A stretch of DNA of 64,000 bases from an uncultured Bacteroidota bacterium (GTDB lineage: Bacteria; Bacteroidota; Bacteroidia; Flavobacteriales; Flavobacteriaceae): positions 228 through 64,227 of the forward strand of contig CAIJXW010000024.1 in assembly GCA_903824755.1 (NCBI GenBank), given 5' to 3'. A program made the position numbers and the translations under genes. Shown piece after piece: positions 25,329 through 51,252 of the stretch (the first letter of the stretch is position 1; the number at the start of each line of letters is the position of its first letter). Under the pieces are notes generated by a model. The model ran no database searches. It was not told where the DNA came from and saw nothing but the letters and a program-made list of their open reading frames with translations.

Positions 25329-26249
25329 ATGACAACTAGAAAAAATAAACTTTTTTTTCTGAAAATTATCAGTTTATTTTCTGTTGTTCGAGGATATAAC
25401 ATTCCCATAATCATTCTAGCACAATACCTTTCAGCAATATTTATACTATCGCCCGAAAAAAGAGCGTTGGAAGTAATTCTAGATTTCAATTTATTCATAA
25501 TCGTATTGTCTAGCTCAATAACCATAGCCTCTGGCTATATAATTAATAATTTCTACGACAGCAAAAAAGACATTATCAATCGCCCAAACAAGTCAATGTT
25601 AGACCGGTTTGTAAGTCAAAAAACAAAACTTTCTGTCTATTTTATTCTAAATTTTATCGCCACAATTTTATTATTTTTCGTTTCCTGGAGAGCCGTATTG
25701 TTCTTTTCTGTCTATATCTTCTCCATTTGGTTTTATTCCCACAAAATAAAAAAAGTCGTAGTAATAGGAAATTTGATGGCCGCAATCATGGCAATATTAC
25801 CTTTTTTTGCCATACTCCTATATTATAAAAACCTGTATGAAGTAATATTTGGACACGCCTCCTTCTTGTTTTTATTATTATTAGTTCGCGAAATGATAAA
25901 AGATTTAGAGAATATCAAAGGCGATTTGGCCAATGGATATAACACAATACCAATCCTTTATGGCGAAACAACGGCAAAGAAAATCATAACCCTGCTAACC
26001 ATTCTAACCCTTTTTCCAATCTATATTTTAATCGATATTTTTGATGTAGGCTATATGGACATCTATTTTTATAGCTGCCTAATTATTTTGATTTTTTTAC
26101 TACTAAAACTTTGGAAATCAGAAACAAAAGCAGATTATTTATTCCTACACAACACGCTAAAATTTCTAATTGTAACCGGCGTATTTTCAATAATATTAAT
26201 CGATCCATCAGTCATTCTCAACGGAAAAAAATTACTAACACTATACTAA
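25329..26249 (+). CDS. UbiA-superfamily prenyltransferase (DGGGP-synthase-like)
   Basis: GYIINNFYD...DIINRP and REMIKDLENIKGD motifs; hydrophobic. Confidence 0.85.
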   Translation: MTTRKNKLFFLKIISLFSVVRGYNIPIIILAQYLSAIFILSPEKRALEVILDFNLFIIVLSSSITIASGYIINNFYDSKKDIINRPNKSMLDRFVSQKTKLSVYFILNFIATILLFFVSWRAVLFFSVYIFSIWFYSHKIKKVVVIGNLMAAIMAILPFFAILLYYKNLYEVIFGHASFLFLLLLVREMIKDLENIKGDLANGYNTIPILYGETTAKKIITLLTILTLFPIYILIDIFDVGYMDIYFYSCLIILIFLLLKLWKSETKADYLFLHNTLKFLIVTGVFSIILIDPSVILNGKKLLTLY

Positions 26250-26252
26250 TTT

Positions 26253-26325
26253 TTTTTTGGAGCTACTCCTGCTGTCATTCCAATCCACGCAAAAAAGCGT
26301 GGGATTTTCCCTTCCATCAGGGCTA
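26253..26325 (-). ncRNA. Structured intergenic repeat, Flavo-1-like (copy B)
   Basis: Minus strand TAGCCCTGATGGAAGGGAAAATCC-CACGC-TTTTTT-GCGTG-GATTGGAATGACAGCAGGAGTAGCTCCAAAA; homologous to 47611-47696. The family name is from memory. Confidence 0.7.
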
Positions 26326-26396
26326 AAAAACAGCCCAAAATCACGTTTCTATTAATTGACAATAATAGCCTATATTTGCACAAATTATAGAATATT

Positions 26397-27302
26397 ATGA
26401 ATAACAAGGAAGGCAACAATAAAAAAACTGGCACCAGAATCAGTTCTAGAACTAATTCTAACAAGCCAAAACCTGCCATGCAAAAAAGGGCACAGGGACC
26501 CAAAAAAGCAAAACCTAATCCTAAAGCAGTAGAAATTGCACCAGACAAAATTGCAAAAAAACCAAATCAAGCTCCAAAACGAGCAAAAGTAGCAGACGAA
26601 ATTCGCTTAAACAAATATATAGCCAACTCAGGAGTATGCTCTCGCCGAGACGCCGATATCTATATTCAATCAGGAAACGTAAAAGTAAACGGAATTCCAG
26701 TAATCGAAATGGGCTATATGGTTAAACCTGGCGATGTAGTGAATTTTGACGGAGCCGTATTAACCCCAGAGAAAAAAGAATATATATTGCTCAACAAGCC
26801 GAAAAATTTTACCACCGCATTAGACGAAGGTCAAGAATATCGAAATGTACTCGAACTCGTCAAAGGTTCCACAACAGCAAAAATTGGAGCAGTAGGCAGA
26901 ATGGATAAAAACACAACTGGATTATTACTGTTTACAAATGACACTGATATGATACGGAAATTTACACTTCCCAATCAGAAATCGTCAAAAATCTATCAAG
27001 TTTCATTAGACAAAAATCTGAAATATGAAGATTTAGAAAAGATAAATAAAGGACTCGTTCTTGATGGACATCGCGTTTTTGTAGAAGATGTTAGCTATAT
27101 CGATAACGAGCCAAAAAGTGAAATCGGACTAAAATTAAGATCCTCAAACGTAAAAGTGGTTCGTGCCATTTTTGAACATTTTGATTATGATGTCCTGAGA
27201 ATTGACCGAGTGGCATTTGCTGGACTAACAAAGAAAAATTTGCCTCGAGGCAACTGGCGATATTTGACCGATCAAGAAATTATCAATTTGAAAAACGCAT
27301 AA
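26397..27302 (+). CDS. rRNA pseudouridine synthase, RsuA/RluB family, with S4 domain
   Basis: IRLNKYIANSGVCSRRDAD, LLNKPK, VGRMDKNTTGLLLFTND; TATATTTG at 26371-26378. Confidence 0.9.
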   Translation: MNNKEGNNKKTGTRISSRTNSNKPKPAMQKRAQGPKKAKPNPKAVEIAPDKIAKKPNQAPKRAKVADEIRLNKYIANSGVCSRRDADIYIQSGNVKVNGIPVIEMGYMVKPGDVVNFDGAVLTPEKKEYILLNKPKNFTTALDEGQEYRNVLELVKGSTTAKIGAVGRMDKNTTGLLLFTNDTDMIRKFTLPNQKSSKIYQVSLDKNLKYEDLEKINKGLVLDGHRVFVEDVSYIDNEPKSEIGLKLRSSNVKVVRAIFEHFDYDVLRIDRVAFAGLTKKNLPRGNWRYLTDQEIINLKNA

Positions 27303-29587: not shown

Positions 29588-29669
29588 TGCGGATAATAGG
29601 ACTCGAACCTACACGCCTTGCGGCACCAGATCCTAAGTCTGGCATGTCTACCAATTTCACCATATCCGC
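29588..29669 (-). tRNA. tRNA-Leu(TAG)
   Basis: GCGGATATGGTGAAATTGGTAGACATGCCAGACTTAGGATCTGGTGCCGCAAGGCGTGTAGGTTCGAGTCCTATTATCCGCA; long variable arm; TATATTTG promoter at 29683-29690. Confidence 0.97.
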
Positions 29670-29812
29670 GAAAATGTGAGTGCAAATATACAACTAATTA
29701 TCACCCACGCAAAAATAAATGTTCTTTTATTTAAAGTTCAAATCCAAGCCAATATTGTACTATAAATTCTGATATTTTTATTGTATTTTTGGTTATCCCT
29801 AACAATAAAAAT

Positions 29813-31201
29813 ATGAATACTATAAAAGCATACGTACAAGAAAATAAAACACGATTCATTGACGAATTAATCGAATTATTGAAAATCCCTTCCGTTAGTG
29901 CCGATGCCGCCTATTCTCAAGACGTAATAAACACAGCCGATGCCGTAAAAAATAGCCTAGAAAATGCGGGTTGCGACTTTGTAGAAATTTGTGACACACC
30001 AGGATATCCAATCGTATATGGCGAAAAAATTATCGACAACACTCTTCCCACTATTTTGGTATATGGCCATTATGATGTGCAACCGCCAGACCCCATAGAA
30101 TTATGGACTTCTCCCCCATTTGAACCCGTGATTAAAACCACCGAAATTCACCCAGAAGGAGCCATTTTTGCTCGTGGTGCTTGTGATGATAAAGGCCAAA
30201 TGTATATGCACGTCAAAGCATTAGAATATATGGTTCGGTCCAAAACCTTGCCTTGCAACGTAAAATTCATGATAGAAGGCGAAGAAGAAGTAGGTTCAAA
30301 AAGCCTAAGCTGGTTTGTAGAACGAAACCAAGAAAAACTAAAATGTGACGTAATACTAATTTCCGATACCGGAATGATCTCCAATCAGCAACCTTCTATA
30401 ACAACAGGACTAAGAGGTTTGAGCTATGTAGAAGTCGAAGTTACAGGCCCAAATCGCGACTTGCACTCTGGACTTTATGGCGGAGCAGTTGCCAATCCAA
30501 TAAATATACTAGCCAAAATGATAGCATCGCTTCATGACGAAAACAACCACATTACCATTCCAGGATTCTATGACAATGTCGAAGAATTATCGATAGAAGA
30601 AAGAGCCGAAATGGCAAAAGCACCCTTCAATTTAGACGACTATAAAAAAGCCCTCAACCTCAACGACATCTATGGCGAAAAAGGATATCTAACGAACGAG
30701 CGAAACTCCATCCGTCCAACATTAGACGTCAACGGAATTTGGGGCGGCTATACTGGCGAAGGAGCAAAAACAGTAATCGCAAGCAAAGCATTCGCCAAAA
30801 TCTCCATGAGATTAGTGCCAAATCAAGACTGGGAAACCATCACCGAACTATTCACAAAACACTTCACAAGCATTGCCCCTGCTGGCGTGACCGTAAAAGT
30901 CACACCCCATCACGGCGGCCAAGGCTATGTCACCCCAACGGATAGTATCGGCTACAAAGCAGCAAATATGGCCTATACAGAAACCTTCGGAGTGCCAGCA
31001 ATTCCAGTGCGTTCCGGCGGAAGTATCCCGATAGTAGCCCTTTTCGAAAAAGAACTCAAAAGCAAAACAATCCTCATGGGATTTGGCCTCGACAGCGACG
31101 CAATCCACTCGCCAAACGAACATTTCGGTATATTCAATTACCTAAAAGGAATCGAAACCATTCCGCTATTCTACAAATATTTCGTAGAATTAAGCAAATA
31201 A
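29813..31201 (+). CDS. M20/ArgE-DapE family dipeptidase
   Basis: YGHYDVQP, ARGACDDKGQ, EGEEEVGS, DLHSG, IHSPNE. Confidence 0.92.
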   Translation: MNTIKAYVQENKTRFIDELIELLKIPSVSADAAYSQDVINTADAVKNSLENAGCDFVEICDTPGYPIVYGEKIIDNTLPTILVYGHYDVQPPDPIELWTSPPFEPVIKTTEIHPEGAIFARGACDDKGQMYMHVKALEYMVRSKTLPCNVKFMIEGEEEVGSKSLSWFVERNQEKLKCDVILISDTGMISNQQPSITTGLRGLSYVEVEVTGPNRDLHSGLYGGAVANPINILAKMIASLHDENNHITIPGFYDNVEELSIEERAEMAKAPFNLDDYKKALNLNDIYGEKGYLTNERNSIRPTLDVNGIWGGYTGEGAKTVIASKAFAKISMRLVPNQDWETITELFTKHFTSIAPAGVTVKVTPHHGGQGYVTPTDSIGYKAANMAYTETFGVPAIPVRSGGSIPIVALFEKELKSKTILMGFGLDSDAIHSPNEHFGIFNYLKGIETIPLFYKYFVELSK

Positions 31202-31219
31202 ATAACACCAATAAACCAC

Positions 31220-31247
31220 AAAATCCGTTCAGTAATGAGCGGATTTT
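31220..31247 (+). terminator. Intrinsic terminator
   Basis: aaaatccgttca-gtaa-tgagcggatttt. Confidence 0.75.
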
Positions 31248-31250
31248 ATA

Positions 31251-31378
31251 TTTGGGCGTGCCCTCGTTTAGAACGTCATTTCACTGCACGAAGCAATCAC
31301 TAAACTCGGTCGAGCTGTTCGCTACAATCTCTGTTCCACTTCGTTACACAGAGGATTTTCGCTGCCATCTCTCACGCA
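31251..31378 (-). ncRNA. Longer variant of the Flavo-1-like structured repeat (copy C)
   Basis: Minus strand GCGTGAGAGATGGCAGCGAAAATCCTCTGT...ACAGAGATTGTAGCGAACAGCTCGACC...GAGGGCACGCCCAAA; shares the GATnGnAGCGAAnAnC twin motif with copies A and B. Confidence 0.6.
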
Positions 31379-31387
31379 AAAAACTAA

Positions 31388-31753
31388 CTAGAAAGCTAAA
31401 ACTTCCAATTGCGCTTTCTTGGTTAAGCTTTTAAAAACCAATTCATAAGAATGGTCAATCAATTCTTTGATTAATATATCGGTAACATCACGATTTATTG
31501 CTATTGTGTTCCAATGAATTTTGCTCATGTGCCATCCTGGTTTTATATCGTCATATAGAACCCTTAATTCTTCGGCATATTCAGGTTTGCATTTCAAATT
31601 TACAGATGGCACGCCTTTTTCCCATTGGGACAAGGAAGAAAGTGCAAACATTTTTCCACCAACTTTAAACACTAATGTTTCTTCATCAAAAGGAAAATGC
31701 TCCGTAACACCTTTCTTGGAAAGACAATATTCATAGAATATTTCTAGATTCAT
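31388..31753 (-). CDS. MmcQ/YjbR family protein
   Basis: FPFDEETLVFKVGGKMFAL, VNLKC, PGWHMSKIHWNT. Confidence 0.92.
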   Translation of the reverse strand: MNLEIFYEYCLSKKGVTEHFPFDEETLVFKVGGKMFALSSLSQWEKGVPSVNLKCKPEYAEELRVLYDDIKPGWHMSKIHWNTIAINRDVTDILIKELIDHSYELVFKSLTKKAQLEVLAF

Positions 31754-38574: not shown

Positions 38575-38648
38575 CGGTCTGGACGGGACTCGAACCCGCG
38601 ACCCCATGCGTGACAGGCATGTATTCTAACCAACTGAACTACCAAACC
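38575..38648 (-). tRNA. tRNA-Asp(GTC)
   Basis: GGTTTGGTAGTTCAGTTGGTTAGAATACATGCCTGTCACGCATGGGGTCGCGGGTTCGAGTCCCGTCCAGACCG; TATATTTG promoter at 38666-38673. Confidence 0.97.
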
Positions 38649-40284: not shown

Positions 40285-43200
40285 TTAATTCAATTTGAAA
40301 CTTACTTGCAATTTTTCTAATTCTAATAATAATTCTTTAGAAATGTTAATTTTTAATTTCCTGCTTGGCATCTCCAAACGTGTGATAATCTTTGTTTCCT
40401 CAATTTCGGTGAGGATTTGAGCTTGTGGCTCGACTGCCTCAACTAATTCTTCATCTCCGTCAAAAACAACGGTTTCTATTTCGCTTACTTCTGACAAAGG
40501 CGTTTCTACTATTCGCTTCACGGTTTCTAATTCCATAATCTCAAACATTACGGTATTATCCCCTTTATTAGTCTGAAATAAAGCACTAAGTTTATGGATA
40601 TTCTCTGGCTCTAAATCGGCAATATTCATTTGAATTACTAGTTTTTTTGCAAAAGTGGACAAAACATTAGCCAGTAATTTTGCGTCTTGAAATATAATCC
40701 TAGGTTCTGATTTTTTTCCAGTTTCTCGATTTACCCAACCTTCTTTAACCCCAATTTTAAAATAAATAAACTGGTTGTTTACCAAGAAATGTCTAAATTT
40801 TAAATAATCCTCATCAAAAATTCTAAATTCATGACTTTCGTCATAGCCATCTACTGTAAAAGCAGCCCAGTCTTTTCCGTTTTTTCCTGTTCGATATTGA
40901 ACATTTGTTACTATTCCTGCAAAGGATAAATTCTTGCCAATTTGATTTTCCAAATTCTTCAAAATCGACAACTGACTATTACAAAAATATTTCATCTCGA
41001 ATTTGAAATCATCTAATGGGTGTCCCGAAATATAAATCCCTACAACTTCTTTTTCTTTGGCCAATTTCTCCATCGTACTCCAATCTTCACAAGGAGGGAC
41101 AACTGGCTCGGCAATTTGAACTTCGCTAGCATCGCCAAAAAGACTCACTTGAGAGGAATTTTCGTTTTCTTGAAATTTAGACCCGTACCTAATTGCCTTT
41201 TCCAAAAACGTAACTCCGTCCCCTTCAATATGAAAATATTGTGCTCTAGTAGTGCCAACAAAAGAATCAAATCCTCCCGCTAATGCTAAGTTTTCAAAGG
41301 CTTTTTTATTGGCTGCTCGTAAATCTATTCGTTTTGCCAAATCAAAAATAGACTTATATTTTCCCTCTTTTCGTCCTTCTACAATTGTAGCAACAGCTCC
41401 AGAACCTACGCCTTTTACTGCACCAATTCCAAATCGGACAGCATAGTTTTCGTTTACCGTAAATTTATAGAAAGACTCATTTACGTCAGGGCCCAAAACT
41501 TGCAATCCCATGCGTTTACACTCTTCCATAAAAAATGAAACTTGCTTGATATCACTCATATTATTAGACAAAACAGCCGCCATATATTCGGCAGGATAGT
41601 TTGCTTTCAAATAAGCTGTTTGATAGGCAATCCAAGCATAACAAGTTGAATGCGATTTGTTAAAAGCATATTCTGCAAAAGCTTCCCAATCTTTCCAGAT
41701 TTTTTCCAATTTTTCTTCCGTATGTCCTTTGGCGACAGCCTGAGAAATAAATTTAGGCTTCATTTTGTCTAGAACATCTTTCTGTTTTTTTCCCATTGCT
41801 TTTCTCAAAACATCGGCATCTCCTTTTGAAAAATCTGCTAATTTTTGAGACAAAAGCATTACTTGTTCTTGATAAACCGTAATTCCGTAGGTTTCTTTGA
41901 GTAGTTCTTCGCAGGCCTCAATATCATATTCAATTTTTTCTTCTCCATTTTTTCTTCTAATAAAACTCGGAATATAAGCTATTGGCCCTGGTCGATATAA
42001 CGCATTCATAGCTATTAAGTCCCCAAAAACTGTTGGCTTTAATTCCTTCATATATTTTTGCATTCCAGGACTTTCATATTGAAAAATACCAACCGTTTCT
42101 CCACGCTGAAATAATTCATACGTTTTTGCATCATCTATTGGAAATTCATCTGGATTGAGTTGAACTCCTGTTCGATATTTAACTAGTTTTACGGTGTCTT
42201 TTATTAAGGTAAGGGTTTTTAATCCCAAGAAATCCATTTTTAATAATCCTGCACTTTCTACTACCGAGTTATCAAATTGAGTTACATATAAATCTGAATC
42301 TTTGGCGGTAGCAACAGGAACAAAATCCGTAATATCACTTGGGGTAATAATAACGCCACAAGCGTGAATTCCAGTATTTCTAAGGTTTCCTTCCAAAACT
42401 TGAGCTTGTTGTATGGTTTCTCCACTCAAGTCGGCGTCTTTTGAAATCCCTATTAATTCTTTTATTTTATCAAAATCTTCAGGCCGAAGCACTTTCTTTA
42501 TTTCTCCTTCCGAATCTTTCAAAAAACGAGCTAAACTCCATTTGGACGGAATAGCATTTGGAATTAATTTGGCTATTTTATCAGCTTCAAAAAGAGGTAA
42601 ATCTAAAACTCTGGCCGTATCTCGAATTGCCGACTTAGCAGCCATTGTTCCATAAGTAATAATTTGGGCAACCTGTTTAGAGCCATATTTTTGAATCACA
42701 TAATCCATCACTCGACTTCTTCCTTCATCATCAAAATCGATATCAATATCGGGCAAAGAAACCCGGTCTGGATTTAGAAAACGCTCAAAAAGTAAATTGT
42801 ATAACAGCGGGTCAATATTCGTAATCCCCAGACAATAGGCCACTACAGAACCCGCTGCAGAACCCCTTCCAGGACCTACAGAAACGTCCATTTTTCTAGC
42901 CTCGGCGATAAAATCTTGAACAATTAGAAAATATCCTGGATATCCTGAGTTTTCAATTGTAAGCAATTCAAAATCTATTCGTTCCTGAATTTCTGGTGTT
43001 ATTTCTTTATACCTTTTTTTTGCCCCTTCAAGAGTTAGATGCTTTAAAAATGCGTTCTCCCCTCTTTTTCCTTGGTCATTTTCATCATCTAATATTAGAA
43101 ATTCTGCTGGAATATCGAATTTTGGTAACAATACCTCTCGAGCCAAGTCATAAATTTCTACTTTATCGACAATCTCTTTTGTATTGGAAATTGCTTCTGG

Positions 43201-44814
43201 CAAGTCATTGAATAATTTTTTCATCTCGCTTGCCGATTTGAAATAATATTCTTGATTTGGCAATCCATATCGATACCCACGTCCCCGACCTATTGGTGTG
43301 GATTGTTTTTCTCCATCGCGAACGCACAACAAAATATCGTGTGCATTTGCGTTTTCTTTTTCGATATAAAAGGTATTATTGGTAGCAATAATTTTTATAT
43401 CGTGTTTTTTGGCCAAACTAACTAAGGCAGAATTTACTCTATTTTCATCTTCTTGATTGTGGCGCATCACCTCGATATAGAAGTCTTCGCCAAATATTTT
43501 TTTCCACCAAATTAGGGCTTCTTCTGCTTGATTTTCGCCAAGATTTAAAATTTTATTTGGAATTTCTCCATATAAATTTCCTGACAAAACGATTAAATCT
43601 TCTTTGTATTTTTCGATAATTTTTTTATCAATTCTCGGAACATAATAAAATCCCTCCGTATAGGCAATTGAGGACATTTTGGCTAAATTATGGTATCCTT
43701 TTTTGGTTTTTGCTAAAAAAACAACTTGAAATCCGTTGTCTTTTCTTGTCTTGTCTTTATGGTCTTCGCACACAAAAAATTCGCAACCAACTATTGGTTT
43801 TATGATTGTTTCTTCAGGAATTTCTTCTTTCTCAATTGCGGCATCATTTTTTGCTTGGGCAATTTTATTATGGTATAAAATATCTCTAACAAAGTGAAAT
43901 GCCCCCATCAAATTGGCGTGATCTGTGATGGCAACCGCAGGCATTTTTTGATTTGCAGTTGCCTTCACGAGAGCTGCAACACTAATTGTAGATTGCAAAA
44001 CCGAAAACTGAGTATGATTATGCAAATGAACAAAGTCGGACGAATTTAATATTTGTTTGTTATCAAATAAGGCTTCTTTTGAAATTATATTGGTTTGGAT
44101 TTCTCCAAATTGTTGTCGGATTTTTTCTGAAGCTTGTTTTAGATTTATGTGTTGTAAACCGATTAACTGAATTTCCTTTGGATTTTTGTTTTGAAATTCT
44201 GAAAAATACTCTTGAGAAACGTCTAATTCTTCTTTTGTAAAAATTTCTCGACGAATTAGTTCGAGAAAACAACGTGTTGTTGCCTCCACATCGGCAGTAG
44301 CATTATGGGCTTCTGAGAATGGTGTTTGGAAAAGATAGTTGTGTAATTCTGTTAATGTTGGTAATTTATATTTTCCGCCTCGTCCACCGGGTAGTTGCAA
44401 AAGCGAAGCGGTAATCTCTGTACAGGTATCCAAAATCGGCATTTTGGCCATTGTTGATTGTACTTGCAAACGGTGAAATTCGCAACCCATAATATTGATA
44501 TCGAAACCTAGATTTTGACCTACAATAAATTTGGCTTTTCCAAGAGCTATATTGAATTGTTCTAAAACTTCTAATAAGGAGACCCCTTCGGCTTGGGCTA
44601 ATTCGGTCGAAATTCCATGAATTCTCTCAGCATCATAGGGTATATTATATCCTTCTGGGCGAATCAAATAATCCTTATGCTCGATAAGTTTCCCCATGTT
44701 GTCGTGAAGTTGCCATGCAATTTGAACGCAACGAGGCCAGTTTCCAGTATCTGTGATGGGTGCGTCCCAGCGTTTTGGCAATCCAGTGGTTTCGGTATCG
44801 AATATTAAATACAT
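40285..44814 (-). CDS. dnaE: DNA polymerase III alpha with fused N-terminal DEDDh 3'-5' exonuclease
   Basis: FDTETTG...HNATADV exonuclease; HLHNHTQFS PHP; GPGRGSAAGS, PDIDIDF, KMDFLGL, FNKSH; ATG 44814 preferred. Confidence 0.96.
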   Translation of the reverse strand: MYLIFDTETTGLPKRWDAPITDTGNWPRCVQIAWQLHDNMGKLIEHKDYLIRPEGYNIPYDAERIHGISTELAQAEGVSLLEVLEQFNIALGKAKFIVGQNLGFDINIMGCEFHRLQVQSTMAKMPILDTCTEITASLLQLPGGRGGKYKLPTLTELHNYLFQTPFSEAHNATADVEATTRCFLELIRREIFTKEELDVSQEYFSEFQNKNPKEIQLIGLQHINLKQASEKIRQQFGEIQTNIISKEALFDNKQILNSSDFVHLHNHTQFSVLQSTISVAALVKATANQKMPAVAITDHANLMGAFHFVRDILYHNKIAQAKNDAAIEKEEIPEETIIKPIVGCEFFVCEDHKDKTRKDNGFQVVFLAKTKKGYHNLAKMSSIAYTEGFYYVPRIDKKIIEKYKEDLIVLSGNLYGEIPNKILNLGENQAEEALIWWKKIFGEDFYIEVMRHNQEDENRVNSALVSLAKKHDIKIIATNNTFYIEKENANAHDILLCVRDGEKQSTPIGRGRGYRYGLPNQEYYFKSASEMKKLFNDLPEAISNTKEIVDKVEIYDLAREVLLPKFDIPAEFLILDDENDQGKRGENAFLKHLTLEGAKKRYKEITPEIQERIDFELLTIENSGYPGYFLIVQDFIAEARKMDVSVGPGRGSAAGSVVAYCLGITNIDPLLYNLLFERFLNPDRVSLPDIDIDFDDEGRSRVMDYVIQKYGSKQVAQIITYGTMAAKSAIRDTARVLDLPLFEADKIAKLIPNAIPSKWSLARFLKDSEGEIKKVLRPEDFDKIKELIGISKDADLSGETIQQAQVLEGNLRNTGIHACGVIITPSDITDFVPVATAKDSDLYVTQFDNSVVESAGLLKMDFLGLKTLTLIKDTVKLVKYRTGVQLNPDEFPIDDAKTYELFQRGETVGIFQYESPGMQKYMKELKPTVFGDLIAMNALYRPGPIAYIPSFIRRKNGEEKIEYDIEACEELLKETYGITVYQEQVMLLSQKLADFSKGDADVLRKAMGKKQKDVLDKMKPKFISQAVAKGHTEEKLEKIWKDWEAFAEYAFNKSHSTCYAWIAYQTAYLKANYPAEYMAAVLSNNMSDIKQVSFFMEECKRMGLQVLGPDVNESFYKFTVNENYAVRFGIGAVKGVGSGAVATIVEGRKEGKYKSIFDLAKRIDLRAANKKAFENLALAGGFDSFVGTTRAQYFHIEGDGVTFLEKAIRYGSKFQENENSSQVSLFGDASEVQIAEPVVPPCEDWSTMEKLAKEKEVVGIYISGHPLDDFKFEMKYFCNSQLSILKNLENQIGKNLSFAGIVTNVQYRTGKNGKDWAAFTVDGYDESHEFRIFDEDYLKFRHFLVNNQFIYFKIGVKEGWVNRETGKKSEPRIIFQDAKLLANVLSTFAKKLVIQMNIADLEPENIHKLSALFQTNKGDNTVMFEIMELETVKRIVETPLSEVSEIETVVFDGDEELVEAVEPQAQILTEIEETKIITRLEMPSRKLKINISKELLLELEKLQVSFKLN

Positions 44815-44930
44815 TAAGGATATTTGAGTTAGATTTGAGAAAAACAAACTATCAAAAATAATCTTTTGATAGATTTGTTGTAAAAATACATTTTGTATAA
44901 TTAATTGTCAATTTTAGTTATCAACAAAAC

Positions 44931-45569: not shown

Positions 45570-45613
45570 CTTAATTAATCGAGGTCGTGTACCTCAAAAT
45601 TTAATCTTAGATT
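45570..45613 (+). promoter_or_regulatory. rpsP 5' leader hairpin (probable S16 ribosomal leader)
   Basis: gaggt-cgtgt-acctc at 45581-45595 between TATATTTG (45558-45565) and the ATG; a flavobacterial S16 leader motif has been described (from memory). Confidence 0.55.
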
Positions 45614-46300
45614 ATGTCTGTAAAAATTAGATTACAAAGACACGGTAAAAAAGGAAAGCCTTTTTACTGGGTTGTAGCGGCAGATGCTCGCTCAAAAAGA
45701 GATGGTAAATACCTAGAAAAAATTGGTACTTATAATCCAAACACAAATCCTGCAACTATCGAATTGAACCTTGACAGTGCAGTACAATGGTTACACAATG
45801 GTGCTCAGCCTACTGACACCGCAAAAGCAATTCTTTCTTACAAAGGTGCTTTATTGAAACACCACCTTGATGGCGGTATTCGTAAAGGAGCTTTAACACA
45901 AGAACAAGCAGATGCTAAATTAGCAGCTTGGTTAGAGGCAAAAGCGGGTAAAGTAGATTCTAAAAAAGCAGGTTTATCAAAAGCGGAAGTGGAAGCAAAA
46001 GCGAAAGCATTGAAAGCTGAAAAAGAAGCAAATGCAAAACGTATTGCCGCGGCTGCTCAAGCAGAAGCTGATGCTATTGCTGCTGCAACTCCAGTTGAAG
46101 AAGTTGCCGTTGAAGAAGAAGCTCCAGTTGCTGAAGTAGAAGTTGCAGAAGAGGAAACTCCAACTGCTGAAGAAGCGGCTCCGGTTGCTGAAGAAGTTGT
46201 TGTTGAAGAAGCACCCGTAGAAGTAGTTGAAGAAGCTGCTGCCGAAATTGCTGATGAAGCTCCTGCTGCCGAAGAAACGGAAGAAACACCTGAGGCTTAA
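45614..46300 (+). CDS. rpsP: 30S ribosomal protein S16 with long acidic C-terminal extension
   Basis: MSVKIRLQRHGKKGKPFY...RDGK..EKIGTYNP, GAQPTDT. Confidence 0.97.
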   Translation: MSVKIRLQRHGKKGKPFYWVVAADARSKRDGKYLEKIGTYNPNTNPATIELNLDSAVQWLHNGAQPTDTAKAILSYKGALLKHHLDGGIRKGALTQEQADAKLAAWLEAKAGKVDSKKAGLSKAEVEAKAKALKAEKEANAKRIAAAAQAEADAIAAATPVEEVAVEEEAPVAEVEVAEEETPTAEEAAPVAEEVVVEEAPVEVVEEAAAEIADEAPAAEETEETPEA

Positions 46301-46891: not shown

Positions 46892-47605
46892 ATGTCCAAA
46901 TTTCAGTTTAAACAGTTTGCTGTTTCTCAAGATAAGTGTGCGATGAAAATTGGCACAGACGGGGTGCTGTTAGGTGCTTGGGCGCCAATTGAAAATCGCC
47001 CTAAATCTATTTTGGACATTGGAACTGGCACTGGAATTATTGCTTTAATGTTAGCTCAGAGAACAAATGCGGTTCAAATTGATGCATTAGAAATTGACGA
47101 AAGTGCCTTTGAACAGGCGACTGATAATTTTGAAAATTCTCCTTGGAACGAACGTTTGTATTGTTATCACGCTGGTTTAGATGAGTTTATAGAGGAGCCG
47201 GAGGACGAATATGATTTGATTGTATCGAATCCTCCTTTTTTTTCGGAAGAGTTTCGCTCAACAGATGAGCGGCGGGATTTGGCTCGATTTCAGGAGGCGA
47301 TGCCGTTTCGGGAATTGATTGAGGCTGCCGATTTATTATTGTCTGAGAATGGTATTTTTTCGGTAATTATTCCATTTAAGGAGGAGGCTACTTTTTTGGC
47401 ACTTGCCAAAGAATATGAGTTATTTCCTATTAGAATAACTAGAGTTAGAGGTTCGGCGGCAACACAAATTGTGAGAAGTTTGTTGGCTTTTCGAAGATAT
47501 GAATTGTCGGTTTTGAGTGCCGATGAGTTGATTATTGAAATTGGCCGACATGAATATACTTCTGATTATATTGAATTGACGAAGGATTTTTATTTGAAAA
47601 TGTGA
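46892..47605 (+). CDS. tRNA1(Val) (adenine37-N6)-methyltransferase
   Basis: FQFKQF..QDKCAMKIGTDGVLLGAW, LDIGTGTG, SNPPFF. Confidence 0.92.
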   Translation: MSKFQFKQFAVSQDKCAMKIGTDGVLLGAWAPIENRPKSILDIGTGTGIIALMLAQRTNAVQIDALEIDESAFEQATDNFENSPWNERLYCYHAGLDEFIEEPEDEYDLIVSNPPFFSEEFRSTDERRDLARFQEAMPFRELIEAADLLLSENGIFSVIIPFKEEATFLALAKEYELFPIRITRVRGSAATQIVRSLLAFRRYELSVLSADELIIEIGRHEYTSDYIELTKDFYLKM

Positions 47606-47610
47606 TGCCC

Positions 47611-47696
47611 TAGCCCTGCTTGTAACGGAAATCCTTTTTATTTTTTCTTTAAAAATAAAAAGATTGAAGTGGAAAGCAGGAAATAGCTCCAAAAAA
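47611..47696 (+). ncRNA. Structured intergenic repeat, Flavo-1-like (copy A)
   Basis: TAGCCCTGCTTGTAACGGAAATCC-TTTTTATTTTT..AAAAATAAAAA-GATTGAAGTGGAAAGCAGGAAATAGCTCCAAAAAA; same termini as copy B, different inner stem. Confidence 0.7.
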
Positions 47697-47810
47697 TGAT
47701 GTAAATTATAACAATTGTTGATGCATTAGTTGCAATTGTTTCTGTAAATTTGCAAAATATTCTTAATTAGATTGTTGGCTATTATGGGTAGCAATCATAA
47801 CCATAAAACT

Positions 47811-48989
47811 ATGAAACCAGATTTATTTCAAGCCCCAGATTATTACAATTTAGACGATTTATTGAATGACGAACACAAATTAGTTCGAGATGCTGCCCGT
47901 GAATGGGTGAAGCGTGAGGTGTCGCCAATTATTGAAGATTTTGCTCAAAGGGCAGAATTTCCTACACAAATTATCAAAGGATTGGCGGATATTGGTGCTT
48001 TTGGCCCCTATATTCCAGAAGAGTATGGCGGAGCAGGATTGGATCAAATTTCTTATGGTTTGATTATGCAAGAGATAGAAAGAGGAGATTCTGGTGTTCG
48101 TTCTACGGCTTCTGTGCAGTCTTCATTAGTGATGTATCCGATTTGGAAATATGGAAATGAGGAGCAACGACTGAAATATTTGCCAAAATTAGCTTCGGGA
48201 GAATTTATGGGTTGTTTTGGATTGACGGAGCCTAATTATGGTTCGGATCCAGGCAGTATGATTACGAACTATAAAGATATGGGTGACCATTATTTATTGA
48301 ATGGTGCAAAAATGTGGATATCGAATGCTCCGTTTGCTGATGTTGCTGTTGTTTGGGCAAAAAATGAAGAAGGACGAATTCACGGTTTGATTGTAGAGCG
48401 AGGAATGGAGGGTTTTTCTACTCCAGAAACTCATAATAAATGGTCGCTACGTGCTTCATCAACAGGGGAATTAATTTTTGATAATGTGAAAGTTCCGAAG
48501 GAGAATTTATTGCCTAATAAATCAGGTTTGGGAGCTCCTCTTGGTTGTTTGGATTCTGCTAGATATGGAATTGCTTGGGGTGCTATCGGCGCTGCAATGG
48601 ACTGTTATGACACGGCTTTGCGGTATGCAAAAGAGAGAATTCAGTTTGACAAACCTATTGCGGGAACACAATTACAGCAAAAAAAATTGGCCGAAATGAT
48701 TACTGAAATTACCAAAGCACAATTATTGACTTGGCGATTGGGTGTTCTTAGAAATGAAGGTCGTGCGACTACTGCTCAAATTTCTATGGCCAAAAGAAAT
48801 AATGTTGATATGGCAATTAATATTGCTCGTGAAGCGAGACAAATATTGGGTGGAATGGGGATTACTGGTGAATATTCTATTATGCGACACATGATGAATT
48901 TAGAATCTGTGATTACCTATGAAGGGACTCATGACATTCATTTATTGATTACTGGGATGGATATTACTGGGATTCCAGCTTTCAAATAA
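47811..48989 (+). CDS. Acyl-CoA dehydrogenase (glutaryl-CoA dehydrogenase-like)
   Basis: GCFGLTEPNYGSD, NGAKMWISN, LRASSTGEL, ITYEGTHDIH. Confidence 0.9.
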   Translation: MKPDLFQAPDYYNLDDLLNDEHKLVRDAAREWVKREVSPIIEDFAQRAEFPTQIIKGLADIGAFGPYIPEEYGGAGLDQISYGLIMQEIERGDSGVRSTASVQSSLVMYPIWKYGNEEQRLKYLPKLASGEFMGCFGLTEPNYGSDPGSMITNYKDMGDHYLLNGAKMWISNAPFADVAVVWAKNEEGRIHGLIVERGMEGFSTPETHNKWSLRASSTGELIFDNVKVPKENLLPNKSGLGAPLGCLDSARYGIAWGAIGAAMDCYDTALRYAKERIQFDKPIAGTQLQQKKLAEMITEITKAQLLTWRLGVLRNEGRATTAQISMAKRNNVDMAINIAREARQILGGMGITGEYSIMRHMMNLESVITYEGTHDIHLLITGMDITGIPAFK

Positions 48990-49026
48990 TAGTAAACATA
49001 TATTAAAGTATTATTAAAATTGATAG

Positions 49027-49057
49027 AAAAAGCTTCCTGTTTTTAGGAAGCTTTTTT
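49027..49057 (+). terminator. Intrinsic terminator
   Basis: aaaaagcttcct-gttttt-aggaagctttttt. Confidence 0.8.
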
Positions 49058-49081
49058 ATTTTTACAAAAAATAAATTTTTC

Positions 49082-49867
49082 ATGAATATTCAAACGATAA
49101 ACCATCGGATTCAACCTCAAAAAGAGGCCTTATTGCATCATTCTTTATATAAAAATGTAAAAACCGTTTCTGATTTACATCATTTTTTGGAAAACCACGT
49201 CTATGCTGTTTGGGATTTTATGTCTTTATTAAAGGCTTTACAATCAAAGTTAACCTGCACGACAACACCTTGGTTTGCAACTGAAAATGCTGAAATTCGT
49301 TATTTGATAAACGAAATTGTATTGGCCGAAGAAACCGATTTGACATTGGACGGAAAGCACCAAAGTCATTTTGAGATGTATGTTGAAGCCATGACGTCCT
49401 GTGGTGCAAATACTCGTGAAATTAATGCGTTTTTGGAAGATGTCTTTGATACTCAAAATATTTTTGTTTCCATCAAAAAAAGTGATTTGCATGTCAATAT
49501 TAAAGCCTTTTTGGATTTTACGTTTCGATTGATTGATGAAGGAAAATCGCATAAAATCGCTGCCGCTTTCACGTTCGGTAGAGAGGATTTGATTCCGAGT
49601 ATGTTTACCGAAATTTTGAAAGGTTTTCAAGCCAATTTTCCTGAAACAGATTTGAGCAAATTGATTTATTATTTTGAAAGACATATCGAATTAGACGCAG
49701 ACGAACATGGTCCTATGGCGATGAAAATGATTTCGGAATTGTGTGGTGATAGTCCTCAAAAATGGGCAGAAGTGGAAGAAACTTCTATCTTGGCACTAGA
49801 AAAACGAATTGGTTTATGGAACGCTATTCAAGAAAAAATAACTCAAACTGAAACCGAATTGGTCTAG
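49082..49867 (+). CDS. DUF3050 family, heme-oxygenase-like fold protein
   Basis: HVYAVWDFMSLLKALQ, INEIVLAEETD, FTFGREDLIP, ERHIELDADEHGP. Confidence 0.85.
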   Translation: MNIQTINHRIQPQKEALLHHSLYKNVKTVSDLHHFLENHVYAVWDFMSLLKALQSKLTCTTTPWFATENAEIRYLINEIVLAEETDLTLDGKHQSHFEMYVEAMTSCGANTREINAFLEDVFDTQNIFVSIKKSDLHVNIKAFLDFTFRLIDEGKSHKIAAAFTFGREDLIPSMFTEILKGFQANFPETDLSKLIYYFERHIELDADEHGPMAMKMISELCGDSPQKWAEVEETSILALEKRIGLWNAIQEKITQTETELV

Positions 49868-50196
49868 GATTCTGGTGCGAGTTCTAGTTCTAGTCCTTCC
49901 AGATTTTCTGTAATTTGGATTTGGCAACCCAGTCGGCTGTTTGTCTTTACGTTAAACGCTTCCGATAGCATGGCTTGTTCGTCATCACTTATTTCTGGAA
50001 TTTTTATATCGTTCAAAATATAGCATTGGCAGGAGGCACACATTGCCATTCCGCCACAAATTCCAATTGTTCCTTCGGGAGCTAATTCGTACATTCTGAC
50101 AATTTCCATGATATTTAGGTTCATGTCCGTAGGTGCTTGAACTTCGTGAGTATTGCCTTCTCGGTCAGTTATTTTTATGGAAATGTCTTCTGCCAT
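49864..50196 (-). CDS. 2Fe-2S ferredoxin (adrenodoxin type)
   Basis: CGGMAMCASCQC...SRLGCQI. Confidence 0.93.
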   Translation of the reverse strand: MAEDISIKITDREGNTHEVQAPTDMNLNIMEIVRMYELAPEGTIGICGGMAMCASCQCYILNDIKIPEISDDEQAMLSEAFNVKTNSRLGCQIQITENLEGLELELAPES

Positions 50197-50199
50197 AAT

Positions 50200-51252
50200 T
50201 TATTCTATTGCTTTAACAACCTGTTTTTCTGCTTCTTTTCTGGTTCCGTCAAAACCATCAACTCCTGAAACGGTGGTGTATTTCAATACATATTTTTTTC
50301 CGGGATTCATTCGTTGATATACACTTTGGCACATTAATGTTGCTTCGTGGAACCCGCACAAAATGAGTTTTAATTTTCCTGGATATGTGTTTACATCTCC
50401 TATGGCATAGATGCCTGGAATATTTGTTTGATAGTCAAGGGCATTATCGACTTTTATTGCGTTTTTTTCAATATCTAATCCCCAGTCCGCAATTGGGCCT
50501 AATTTTGGTGACAATCCAAAAAGTGGAATTAGGAAATCGGTTTCAATAATTTGTTGGATTCCGTCTTTTTCAATTGTAATTGATTCCAAATGATTTTTTC
50601 CTTGAAGAGAAATAACTTCGGCAGGAGTAATTAGTTTTATTTTTCCTGATGCTTTCAATTCTTGCACTTTTTCTACAGAATCTAAAGCTCCTCGAAATTC
50701 GTTTCTTCGATGAATTAAGGTTACACTTGAGGCAACATCAGCAAGAAATATACTCCAATCTAATGCCGAATCCCCTCCGCCTGCTATCACAATTTTTTTG
50801 TTTCGGAACAATTCGGGGTCTTTAACAAAATACTCAACGCCTTTGTCTTCAAAAAACCCGATGGTTTCGATTGAAGGTTTTCGAGGTTCAAAGCTTCCTA
50901 ATCCGCCAGCAATTGCAACGGCATTTGCATGGTGTTTTGTTCCTTTATTTGTGGTCACAACAAAGGTTCCATCGTTTAATTTATCAATGGTTTCGGCAAC
51001 TTCATTTAGGGTAAAACCAGGTTGAAATTGTTTAATTTGCTCCATTAAATTTGTCACTAAATCGCCTGCTAAAACAGATGGAAAACCAGGAATATCAAAG
51101 ATTGGTTTCTTTGGATATAATTCAGTGAGTTGCCCTCCTGGTTGTGGAAGTCCATCTATGATGTGACATTTCAACTTTAATAAGCCCGCTTCAAAAACTG
51201 TAAAGAGTCCTGTTGGACCGGCACCTATTATGAGTATATCTGTTTCAATCAT
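50200..51252 (-). CDS. Ferredoxin--NADP+ reductase (TrxB-like, YumC type)
   Basis: IIGAGPTGL, GGQLTELYPKKPIFDIPG, GGGDSALDW; no CxxC. Confidence 0.9.
   Translation of the reverse strand: MIETDILIIGAGPTGLFTVFEAGLLKLKCHIIDGLPQPGGQLTELYPKKPIFDIPGFPSVLAGDLVTNLMEQIKQFQPGFTLNEVAETIDKLNDGTFVVTTNKGTKHHANAVAIAGGLGSFEPRKPSIETIGFFEDKGVEYFVKDPELFRNKKIVIAGGGDSALDWSIFLADVASSVTLIHRRNEFRGALDSVEKVQELKASGKIKLITPAEVISLQGKNHLESITIEKDGIQQIIETDFLIPLFGLSPKLGPIADWGLDIEKNAIKVDNALDYQTNIPGIYAIGDVNTYPGKLKLILCGFHEATLMCQSVYQRMNPGKKYVLKYTTVSGVDGFDGTRKEAEKQVVKAIE

Follow-up and report, generated by a model that had tools for sequence, protein, structure and literature searches.

The Flavo-1 hairpin centres local, orientation-dependent strand asymmetry in a Flavobacteriaceae genome

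Why do two neighbouring genes of an uncultured Bacteroidota bacterium favour codons ending in G or T, when codons ending in A are the rule around them? The question arises in a stretch of 64,000 nucleotides from the family Flavobacteriaceae (assembly GCA_903824755.1, contig CAIJXW010000024.1, positions 228 to 64,227; hereafter the window). A copy of the repeat Flavo-1 (copy A, 47608..47687, + strand; Rfam RF01705, 75.8 bits) lies at the centre of the skew, with a gene for a TrmN-like tRNA adenine-N6 methyltransferase on its 5' flank (46892..47605, +; NCBIfam NF047853, E 1e-74, under the curated cut-off) and an acyl-CoA dehydrogenase gene on its 3' flank (47811..48989, +; the open reading frame (ORF) listing starts at TTG 47772, with an ATG at 47811). 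A preliminary description of this DNA had noted that the skew matches the orientation of the element. A recount of the 3' half of the methyltransferase gene (47171-47605) reproduced the 13 GAG and 8 GAA codons reported there for glutamate, in a genome where the GAG share is 0.16, and 16 of its 27 Glu, Lys and Gln codons end in G (p=7e-8 vs the genome share). The richness in other G-ending codons held for TTG (12, vs 4 TTA), TCG (5), CGG (3), CCG (2) and GCG (2) and failed for AAG, with only 2. The keto excess, i.e. the surplus of G+T at synonymous third positions, is +0.21 in the methyltransferase gene and, as had been said of the gene across the element, also raised in the dehydrogenase gene (+0.16, z 6.7), which has 10 GAG and 18 GAA codons and T78 A44 G29 C11 at its 4-fold sites. 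GAA does dominate elsewhere, with 3 GAG and 32 GAA in rpsP and 1 GAG and 35 GAA in the dipeptidase gene beside a second copy.

The excess of G and T on the + strand covers approximately 46900..51000 in the sliding profile. Along the window the + strand skew is -0.19/-0.17 at 25-26 kb and -0.21 at 30 kb, stays between -0.05 and +0.05 at 33-43 kb, rises to +0.18/+0.17 at 47-48 kb and is back to +0.02 at 51 kb, and it thus does not run over tens of kb. Nor does it fall within the background, since of the 702 genes at distances above 4 kb from every element none reaches +0.215 and 3 reach +0.159. At sites where the consensus of relatives is A, the methyltransferase gene reads G at 19 of 40 and the dehydrogenase gene at 22 of 86, far above the 9% of the relatives themselves, indicating that these A-to-G changes are derived in the source genome (G000).

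The source genome comprises 2.0 Mb in 190 contigs (89% complete, 1,689 mechanically called ORFs) and holds 82 Flavo-1 copies, 76 detected with the covariance model (E<=0.001) and 6 added by nhmmer; 62 exceed the gathering threshold of 42 bits. Nearly every copy centres a zone of a few kb, 2-3 kb on each side, in which the element strand is richer in G and T. Scores could be given to 156 element sides, 8 others having too few codons. Within 1 kb the keto excess of the element strand over the genome-wide background is positive on 75 of 76 5' sides and on 80 of 80 3' sides; with a background of far genes only, 153 of the 156 sides are positive, 134 of them with z>2 and none below -2. Copies scored on two sides are positive on both in 73 of 74 cases and exceed z 2 on both in 57, compared with 12 of 431 control gaps counted in either direction, and a sign-flip permutation gave a maximum of 410 in 200,000 against the observed 796. 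From a maximum of +0.165 at the element the profile decays exponentially (length constants 1.28 kb on the 5' side, 1.49 kb on the 3' side), reaching background within 3-4 kb with no switch of sign at the site; the skew is a little higher on the 3' side (+0.026, p=0.001). Close to the element, the share of A at 4-fold sites of same-strand genes is 0.23 instead of about 0.39 and that of G 0.29 instead of 0.125, and opposite-strand genes show the mirror-image composition. A same-strand copy is found within 1.2 kb of 38 of the 45 genes with the strongest keto skew, compared with 84 of all 1,689 genes, and an opposite-strand copy is equally close to 42 of the 45 with the strongest amino skew, compared with 140 of 1,689. 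The mean effect is 0.14, and 21% of the genome is within 3 kb of a copy.

These data support that the skew tracks the orientation of the element, not the gene strand or the replichore. It is seen in all four arrangements of flanking genes and in intergenic DNA near elements (keto 0.548 and 0.556 vs 0.503), which bears out the early view that gene strand is not the cause; transcription-associated mutagenesis is rejected on the same ground, the sign following the element and not the gene. Copies in opposite orientation on one contig have opposite skew, and copies on either inferred replichore, a rough proxy, are positive (13/13 and 4/4). At a replication origin or terminus the skew would reverse across the site, whereas around Flavo-1 both flanks have the same sign. 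Non-synonymous changes lean weakly the same way, 104:147 in opposite-strand genes vs 2047:2194 far from elements. A general effect of hairpins is rejected by 171 control hairpins (dG<=-9), which are flat with mean skews of 0.001/0.002 (z>2 on both sides in 4, z<-2 on both in 3), and tRNAs, terminators and the other repeat families among those listed are flat away from Flavo-1.

Orthologues separate the element from its surroundings. In a comparison with the relative G006 (797 kb of 4.1 Mb; 280 reciprocal orthologue pairs), genes near a copy present only in the source genome have +0.14/-0.17 there and 0.006/0.002 in G006, and genes near a copy present only in G006 have +0.04/-0.06 there and about zero in the source genome. 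The skew thus follows the element across orthologues and is absent where the relative lacks it. It is therefore barely credible that replichore skew, codon selection by gene strand, a local inversion or chance accounts for the pattern. A replichore skew of about ±0.03-0.05 does exist in relatives, in G006 with a switch near 300-350 kb, but the effect of the element is additive to it on both arms, and the local decay, the dependence on orientation, the permutation, the intergenic effect and the orthologues led us to reject these explanations. Flavo-1 was detected in at least 16 of 150 genomes of the phylum (29 candidates scored per genome) and in 7 of 7 in the genus, and at shared sites the orientation is the same in 44 of 46 cases and opposite in 2. 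Relatives that show the effect show it in the same direction, 2-6 times weaker than the source genome. Since the source genome is 2-3 times or more stronger even at the same shared sites, age alone is insufficient to account for the difference; loss of a repair gene was also considered as the reason for its extreme position, and no difference from relatives was found.

What could be read at such a site? All three window copies (75.8, 53.2 and 43.7 bits) belong to Flavo-1 by score and by their covarying hairpin. The consensus starts with YTAGCCC and the length is 76-150 nt with internal loops. In an alignment of 40 sequences 96.7% of the cells are paired, with 95 double-sided changes and only 4 G-U cells of 480, and in the source genome 59-61 of 62 parsed copies have Watson-Crick partners at four covarying pairs. 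A GAT-W-GNA-RY-GNA-W-like motif can be read from the alignment in each arm, and short covarying helices flank two purine-rich symmetric loops, which presumably form sheared G·A pairs. Copy A folds as DNA with -14.4 kcal/mol (z -3.6). The GNA/GNA loops can be formed on one strand only, and the element therefore has a polarity independent of its flanks. G·T pairs make up 3.6% vs 8.0% in control hairpins, and their rarity despite local pressure creating them suggests selection on the DNA structure or correction from arm to arm. A second subfamily carries an added 3' arm. In the source genome, long variants (140 nt) whose apical loop holds a further small hairpin occur, with skewed flanks, at C67:4170, C88:5792, C123:9062, C49:5651 and C165:8535. 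The flanking genes are housekeeping genes, to which the element is more often antisense (31 vs 14). On the 69-kb contig C94 all seven copies lie on the + strand.

Flavo-1 was published as a probable non-cis-regulatory RNA or small RNA (sRNA) of unknown function (Weinberg et al. 2010; available text of PMC2864571), and its function is called unclear in the accessible part of PMC9723704; the data here point to a strand-specific role at the level of DNA. As an RNA it might act through sense transcripts forming R-loops, with the displaced element strand exposed to deamination; this would agree with the Rfam listing as a probable sRNA (PMC2864571), and a displaced non-template strand would gain T and G. 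We regard it as very improbable, because the effect is equal upstream and downstream and in all gene arrangements, is strongest where genes are antisense (0.14-0.16 vs 0.11-0.14), and the hairpin has few G-U pairs. Also, matches in another Flavobacterium are sense and antisense and many lie outside transcribed regions, according to the accessible part of PMC9723704.

The substitutions that would give the observed composition were fitted at 4-fold sites with a crude rate matrix derived from saturated sites. The best directional fit has A>G raised 3.7-4.9-fold and C>T raised 2.2-2.5-fold on the element strand, with a total rate rise of only 1.3-1.4-fold. Its chi2 is 31/21.5, whereas A>G alone gives 291/210 and A>N gives 435/837; these two and models with reduced reverse rates were rejected as poorer fits to the 4-fold composition. 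G/A and T/C shift by the same amount, 1.51 and 1.44 log-odds, each 4.4 times as far as in the replichore signature of G006, and the added rates fitted for A>G and C>T are about equal too. No sharp preference for sequence context was found, and no sharp context of the APOBEC type. Escherichia coli defective in mismatch repair (MMR) has equal strand bias of A and C on the lagging-strand template, 2.44 and 2.34 in the available text of 10.1101/346874. Flavo-1 zones are alike in that A>G and C>T are equal on one strand, the element strand resembling the lagging-strand template, and differ in that the asymmetry is set by a dispersed 80-nt site, is local, has no sign switch and is independent of fork direction.

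A footprint on the same strand on both sides, decaying over kb, implies a strand-specific event centred on the element. On balance we lean towards Flavo-1 being a chromosomal single-stranded DNA signal, not an RNA, kept for a strand-specific hairpin with G·A loops and imposing a choice of strand on repair or recombination over kb in both directions; it would then represent a new class of cis element that locally rewrites the mutation spectra of core genes. A tentative model for the event, to which we give a little under an even chance and which needs the fewest assumptions, has the strand opposite the hairpin removed and resynthesised time and again, with the element strand as privileged template. 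Flavo-1 would fold as single-stranded DNA on its own strand and be read as a DNA hairpin, which, through a nick or a loaded clamp, might provide an invariable strand signal for long-patch excision resembling MMR. Excision and recopying of the opposite strand by a host factor would then be repeated in both directions, and the element strand could act as a permanent lagging-strand-like template. Three routes would all lead to A>G and C>T changes: retention of mispairs in favour of the element strand, misinsertion of C or A opposite A or C of that strand, and deamination of the exposed template strand. Long-patch MMR spans hundreds to thousands of bases (PMC11551744, available text). The source genome has MutS, MutL with a QQLLFP clamp-type motif, Ung and two Y-family polymerases (DinB and a second), and as endonuclease V and MPG were not found in 5/5 genomes each, deamination of adenine is possible too. 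The reading predicts a hairpin-reading host factor in Flavobacterium.

Gene conversion could produce the same composition without extra mutation. Flavo-1 would in that case be a signal for uptake or recombination of single strands, the foldable strand being preferentially the incoming one in a heteroduplex of 1-3 kb, and G and T alleles would be fixed on it if G·T mismatches outlast A·C. The decay length resembles that of a recombination tract, and the element stands beside housekeeping genes at conserved sites and gave no real copy in phage, plasmid and viral collections (one query each). The effect size also goes up with copy density, roughly estimated (rho 0.78 for n=12, related members not being independent), and ComEC is present, but it is present in Flavo-1-poor genomes too, and known uptake sequences are far denser than Flavo-1 with its roughly 40 copies per Mb. 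We hold conversion to be on the unlikely side, and of its supports two weigh directly against the excision and recopying favoured above: strand-biased conversion matches the fit of added mutation (chi2 32.6/24.1), and synonymous identity shows no detectable loss near elements, with wide intervals at saturated sites. Because synonymous sites are near saturation, extra mutation is neither shown nor excluded.

Several further observations count against a DNA signal that directs excision of the opposite strand. The effect is weaker in relatives, at 0.064 in G002, 0.045 in G003, 0.042 in G006, 0.036 in G175, 0.026 in G024 (another family), 0.025 in G083, 0.024 in G151, 0.022 in G016 and 0.010 in G075, and about zero in G009, G018, G067 and G091; the values for these 13 genomes rest on 3 to 28 copies each, mostly the top-scoring ones. 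In the nearest syntenic relatives, which have an element at the site of copy A, the methyltransferase gene is unskewed and the dehydrogenase gene has only +0.04 to +0.07 (about +0.055), the exception being G002 (L017) with +0.15/+0.10. Methyltransferase genes of element-bearing and other relatives hardly differ, at -0.009 in 7 loci vs -0.029 in 60 loci and, in a second comparison, at -0.030 in 13 loci vs -0.030 in 59 loci. About five internal skew peaks of the source genome have no detectable element (C94:54000-57500, C44:4000-6000, C72:9000-10500, C88:9500-10500 and C96:~18000). Lost elements as their cause are unsupported, since the orthologues of relatives, where sequence was at hand, have no Flavo-1 nearby; three orphan peaks at contig ends do contain truncated copies. 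The 5'-NAC-3' context that MMR-defective E. coli favours was not evident, the fold change before a 3' C, relative to an uncalibrated baseline, being low in same-strand and slightly high in opposite-strand genes. The metal-site motif of MutL reads DQQRAHQRVLYE, which we take to depart from the canonical form, and a trans-acting protein for Flavo-1 was sought and not found in the genomes searched. No methyltransferase relative above about 80% identity, sought to polarise the rates, was found. As separate observations at this locus, L014 (G014) has three copies in alternating orientation around the methyltransferase and dehydrogenase genes with little net skew, and L321, which may have a divergent copy, has +0.09 and +0.16 in the two genes with no element detected.

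Resynthesis of the element strand itself would leave the same A>G and C>T signature, if that strand were nicked at the hairpin by a nuclease of the HUH/RAYT or another type and copied in both directions by an error-prone polymerase, with T·dG and G·dT errors escaping correction. The DinB and second Y-family proteins could serve here, and RAYTs of Bacteroidetes with atypical flanking structures exist (available text of PMC6006769). This appears unlikely, as no Y1 transposase was found in the source genome (89% complete), where the effect is strongest, and RAYTs of relatives carry their own, different repeats; Flavo-1 is near 5 of 30 RAYT loci, with one copy each and never on both sides, and the RAYT-type repeat of the source genome (9 matches) has no flanking skew. 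The nine copies of this second small palindrome, on C27, C66, C80, C97, C134 and C149, resemble repeats flanking RAYT genes in relatives. In G006 a tandem array of palindromic units lies 3' of an IS200-like Y1 transposase gene (L245:1857-2705). The only GIY-YIG matches in the source genome lie in proteins of 600 and 461 aa, and no recurrent passenger or mobiliser gene was found among 599 flanking ORFs or between paired copies. Like the REP, BIME and REPIN repeats served by RAYTs, as described in the available texts of PMC3733652 and PMC6006769, Flavo-1 is a dispersed, intergenic, imperfect chromosomal hairpin, with a subfamily A that starts with YTAG and an orientation free of the replichore in G151. 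It differs in being about 80-150 nt and not 20-40, in having no GTAG/CGTC tag and in having no flanked transposase found, and by tag and length and by the cognate Y1 HUH transposase it does not belong to them. Mechanisms other than those discussed are given a small probability.

Flavo-1 also differs from other local systems. Kataegis-type, strand-coordinated mutation at resected double-strand breaks gives kb zones around a fixed site, on opposite strands on the two sides, whereas Flavo-1 affects the same strand on both (73/74). Diversity-generating retroelements lose A on one strand near a structured cis element; near Flavo-1, C falls too, the A>N model fits worst, the genes are housekeeping genes and the range is kb, and no pair of template and variable repeats was found within the window. 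DNA uptake sequences, Chi and the primosome assembly hairpins of the phiX174 type are oriented cis signals enriched in core chromosomes and read by host DNA-processing proteins, and we know of no same-sign, two-sided substitution footprint for them. No report of a flanking substitution footprint for Flavo-1 was found in the literature, where closed papers and supplements could hold one, and the repeat being known, it is its effect, the cis-acting control of strand asymmetry, that appears to be new. The direction of replication and transcription are the causes given for strand asymmetry in bacteria. In this genome it is set locally by a dispersed repeat of 80 nt, with one sign to either side and a strength several times that of the replichore effect in a relative. 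An orphan Rfam motif known since 2010 thereby gains its first link to a function, one that suggests action as DNA. Inferences on codon usage, expression or horizontal transfer are biased for genes near Flavo-1.

Two more copies lie in the window, both on the - strand. Copy B (31304..31382, 53.2 bits) is of the second subfamily, with a 3' extension to about 31255. The dipeptidase gene beside it (29789..31201, +) has the mirror-image skew of -0.22 (z -10), opposite to the +0.16/+0.21 at copy A, and to this extent the mirror image drawn in the preliminary description stands. It does not extend to the 5' side of copy B, where the skew is 0.00 (3' side +0.27), and this too counts against a two-sided action of the element. 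A contig of a separate run covers 30553-31684 with zero differences. Copy C (26261..26328, 43.7 bits) is skewed on both sides, +0.11 and +0.20 in the element frame, and is flanked by genes for a prenyltransferase and a RluF-like pseudouridine synthase (25329..27302, +) with mirror skews of -0.18 and -0.11.

The tail of the 3' zone of copy A contains a gene (49082..49867, +; skew +0.07) for a protein without NCBIfam match, which we assume to be of the DUF3050 type. It is followed on the - strand by an ORF, presumably ferredoxin-like, and a thioredoxin-reductase-like gene (49864..51252), with mirror skews of -0.18 and -0.10 in the gene frame. Upstream of the zone, rpsP is preceded by an S16-Flavobacteria leader (45574-45605, +) and encodes a long repetitive tail rich in Glu, Ala and Pro (46040-46300). 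The window also contains two tRNA genes (29588-29669 and 38575-38648, both -) and a DnaE gene (40285-44847, -), the product of which, at 1520 aa, has an epsilon-like exonuclease domain fused at its N-terminus.
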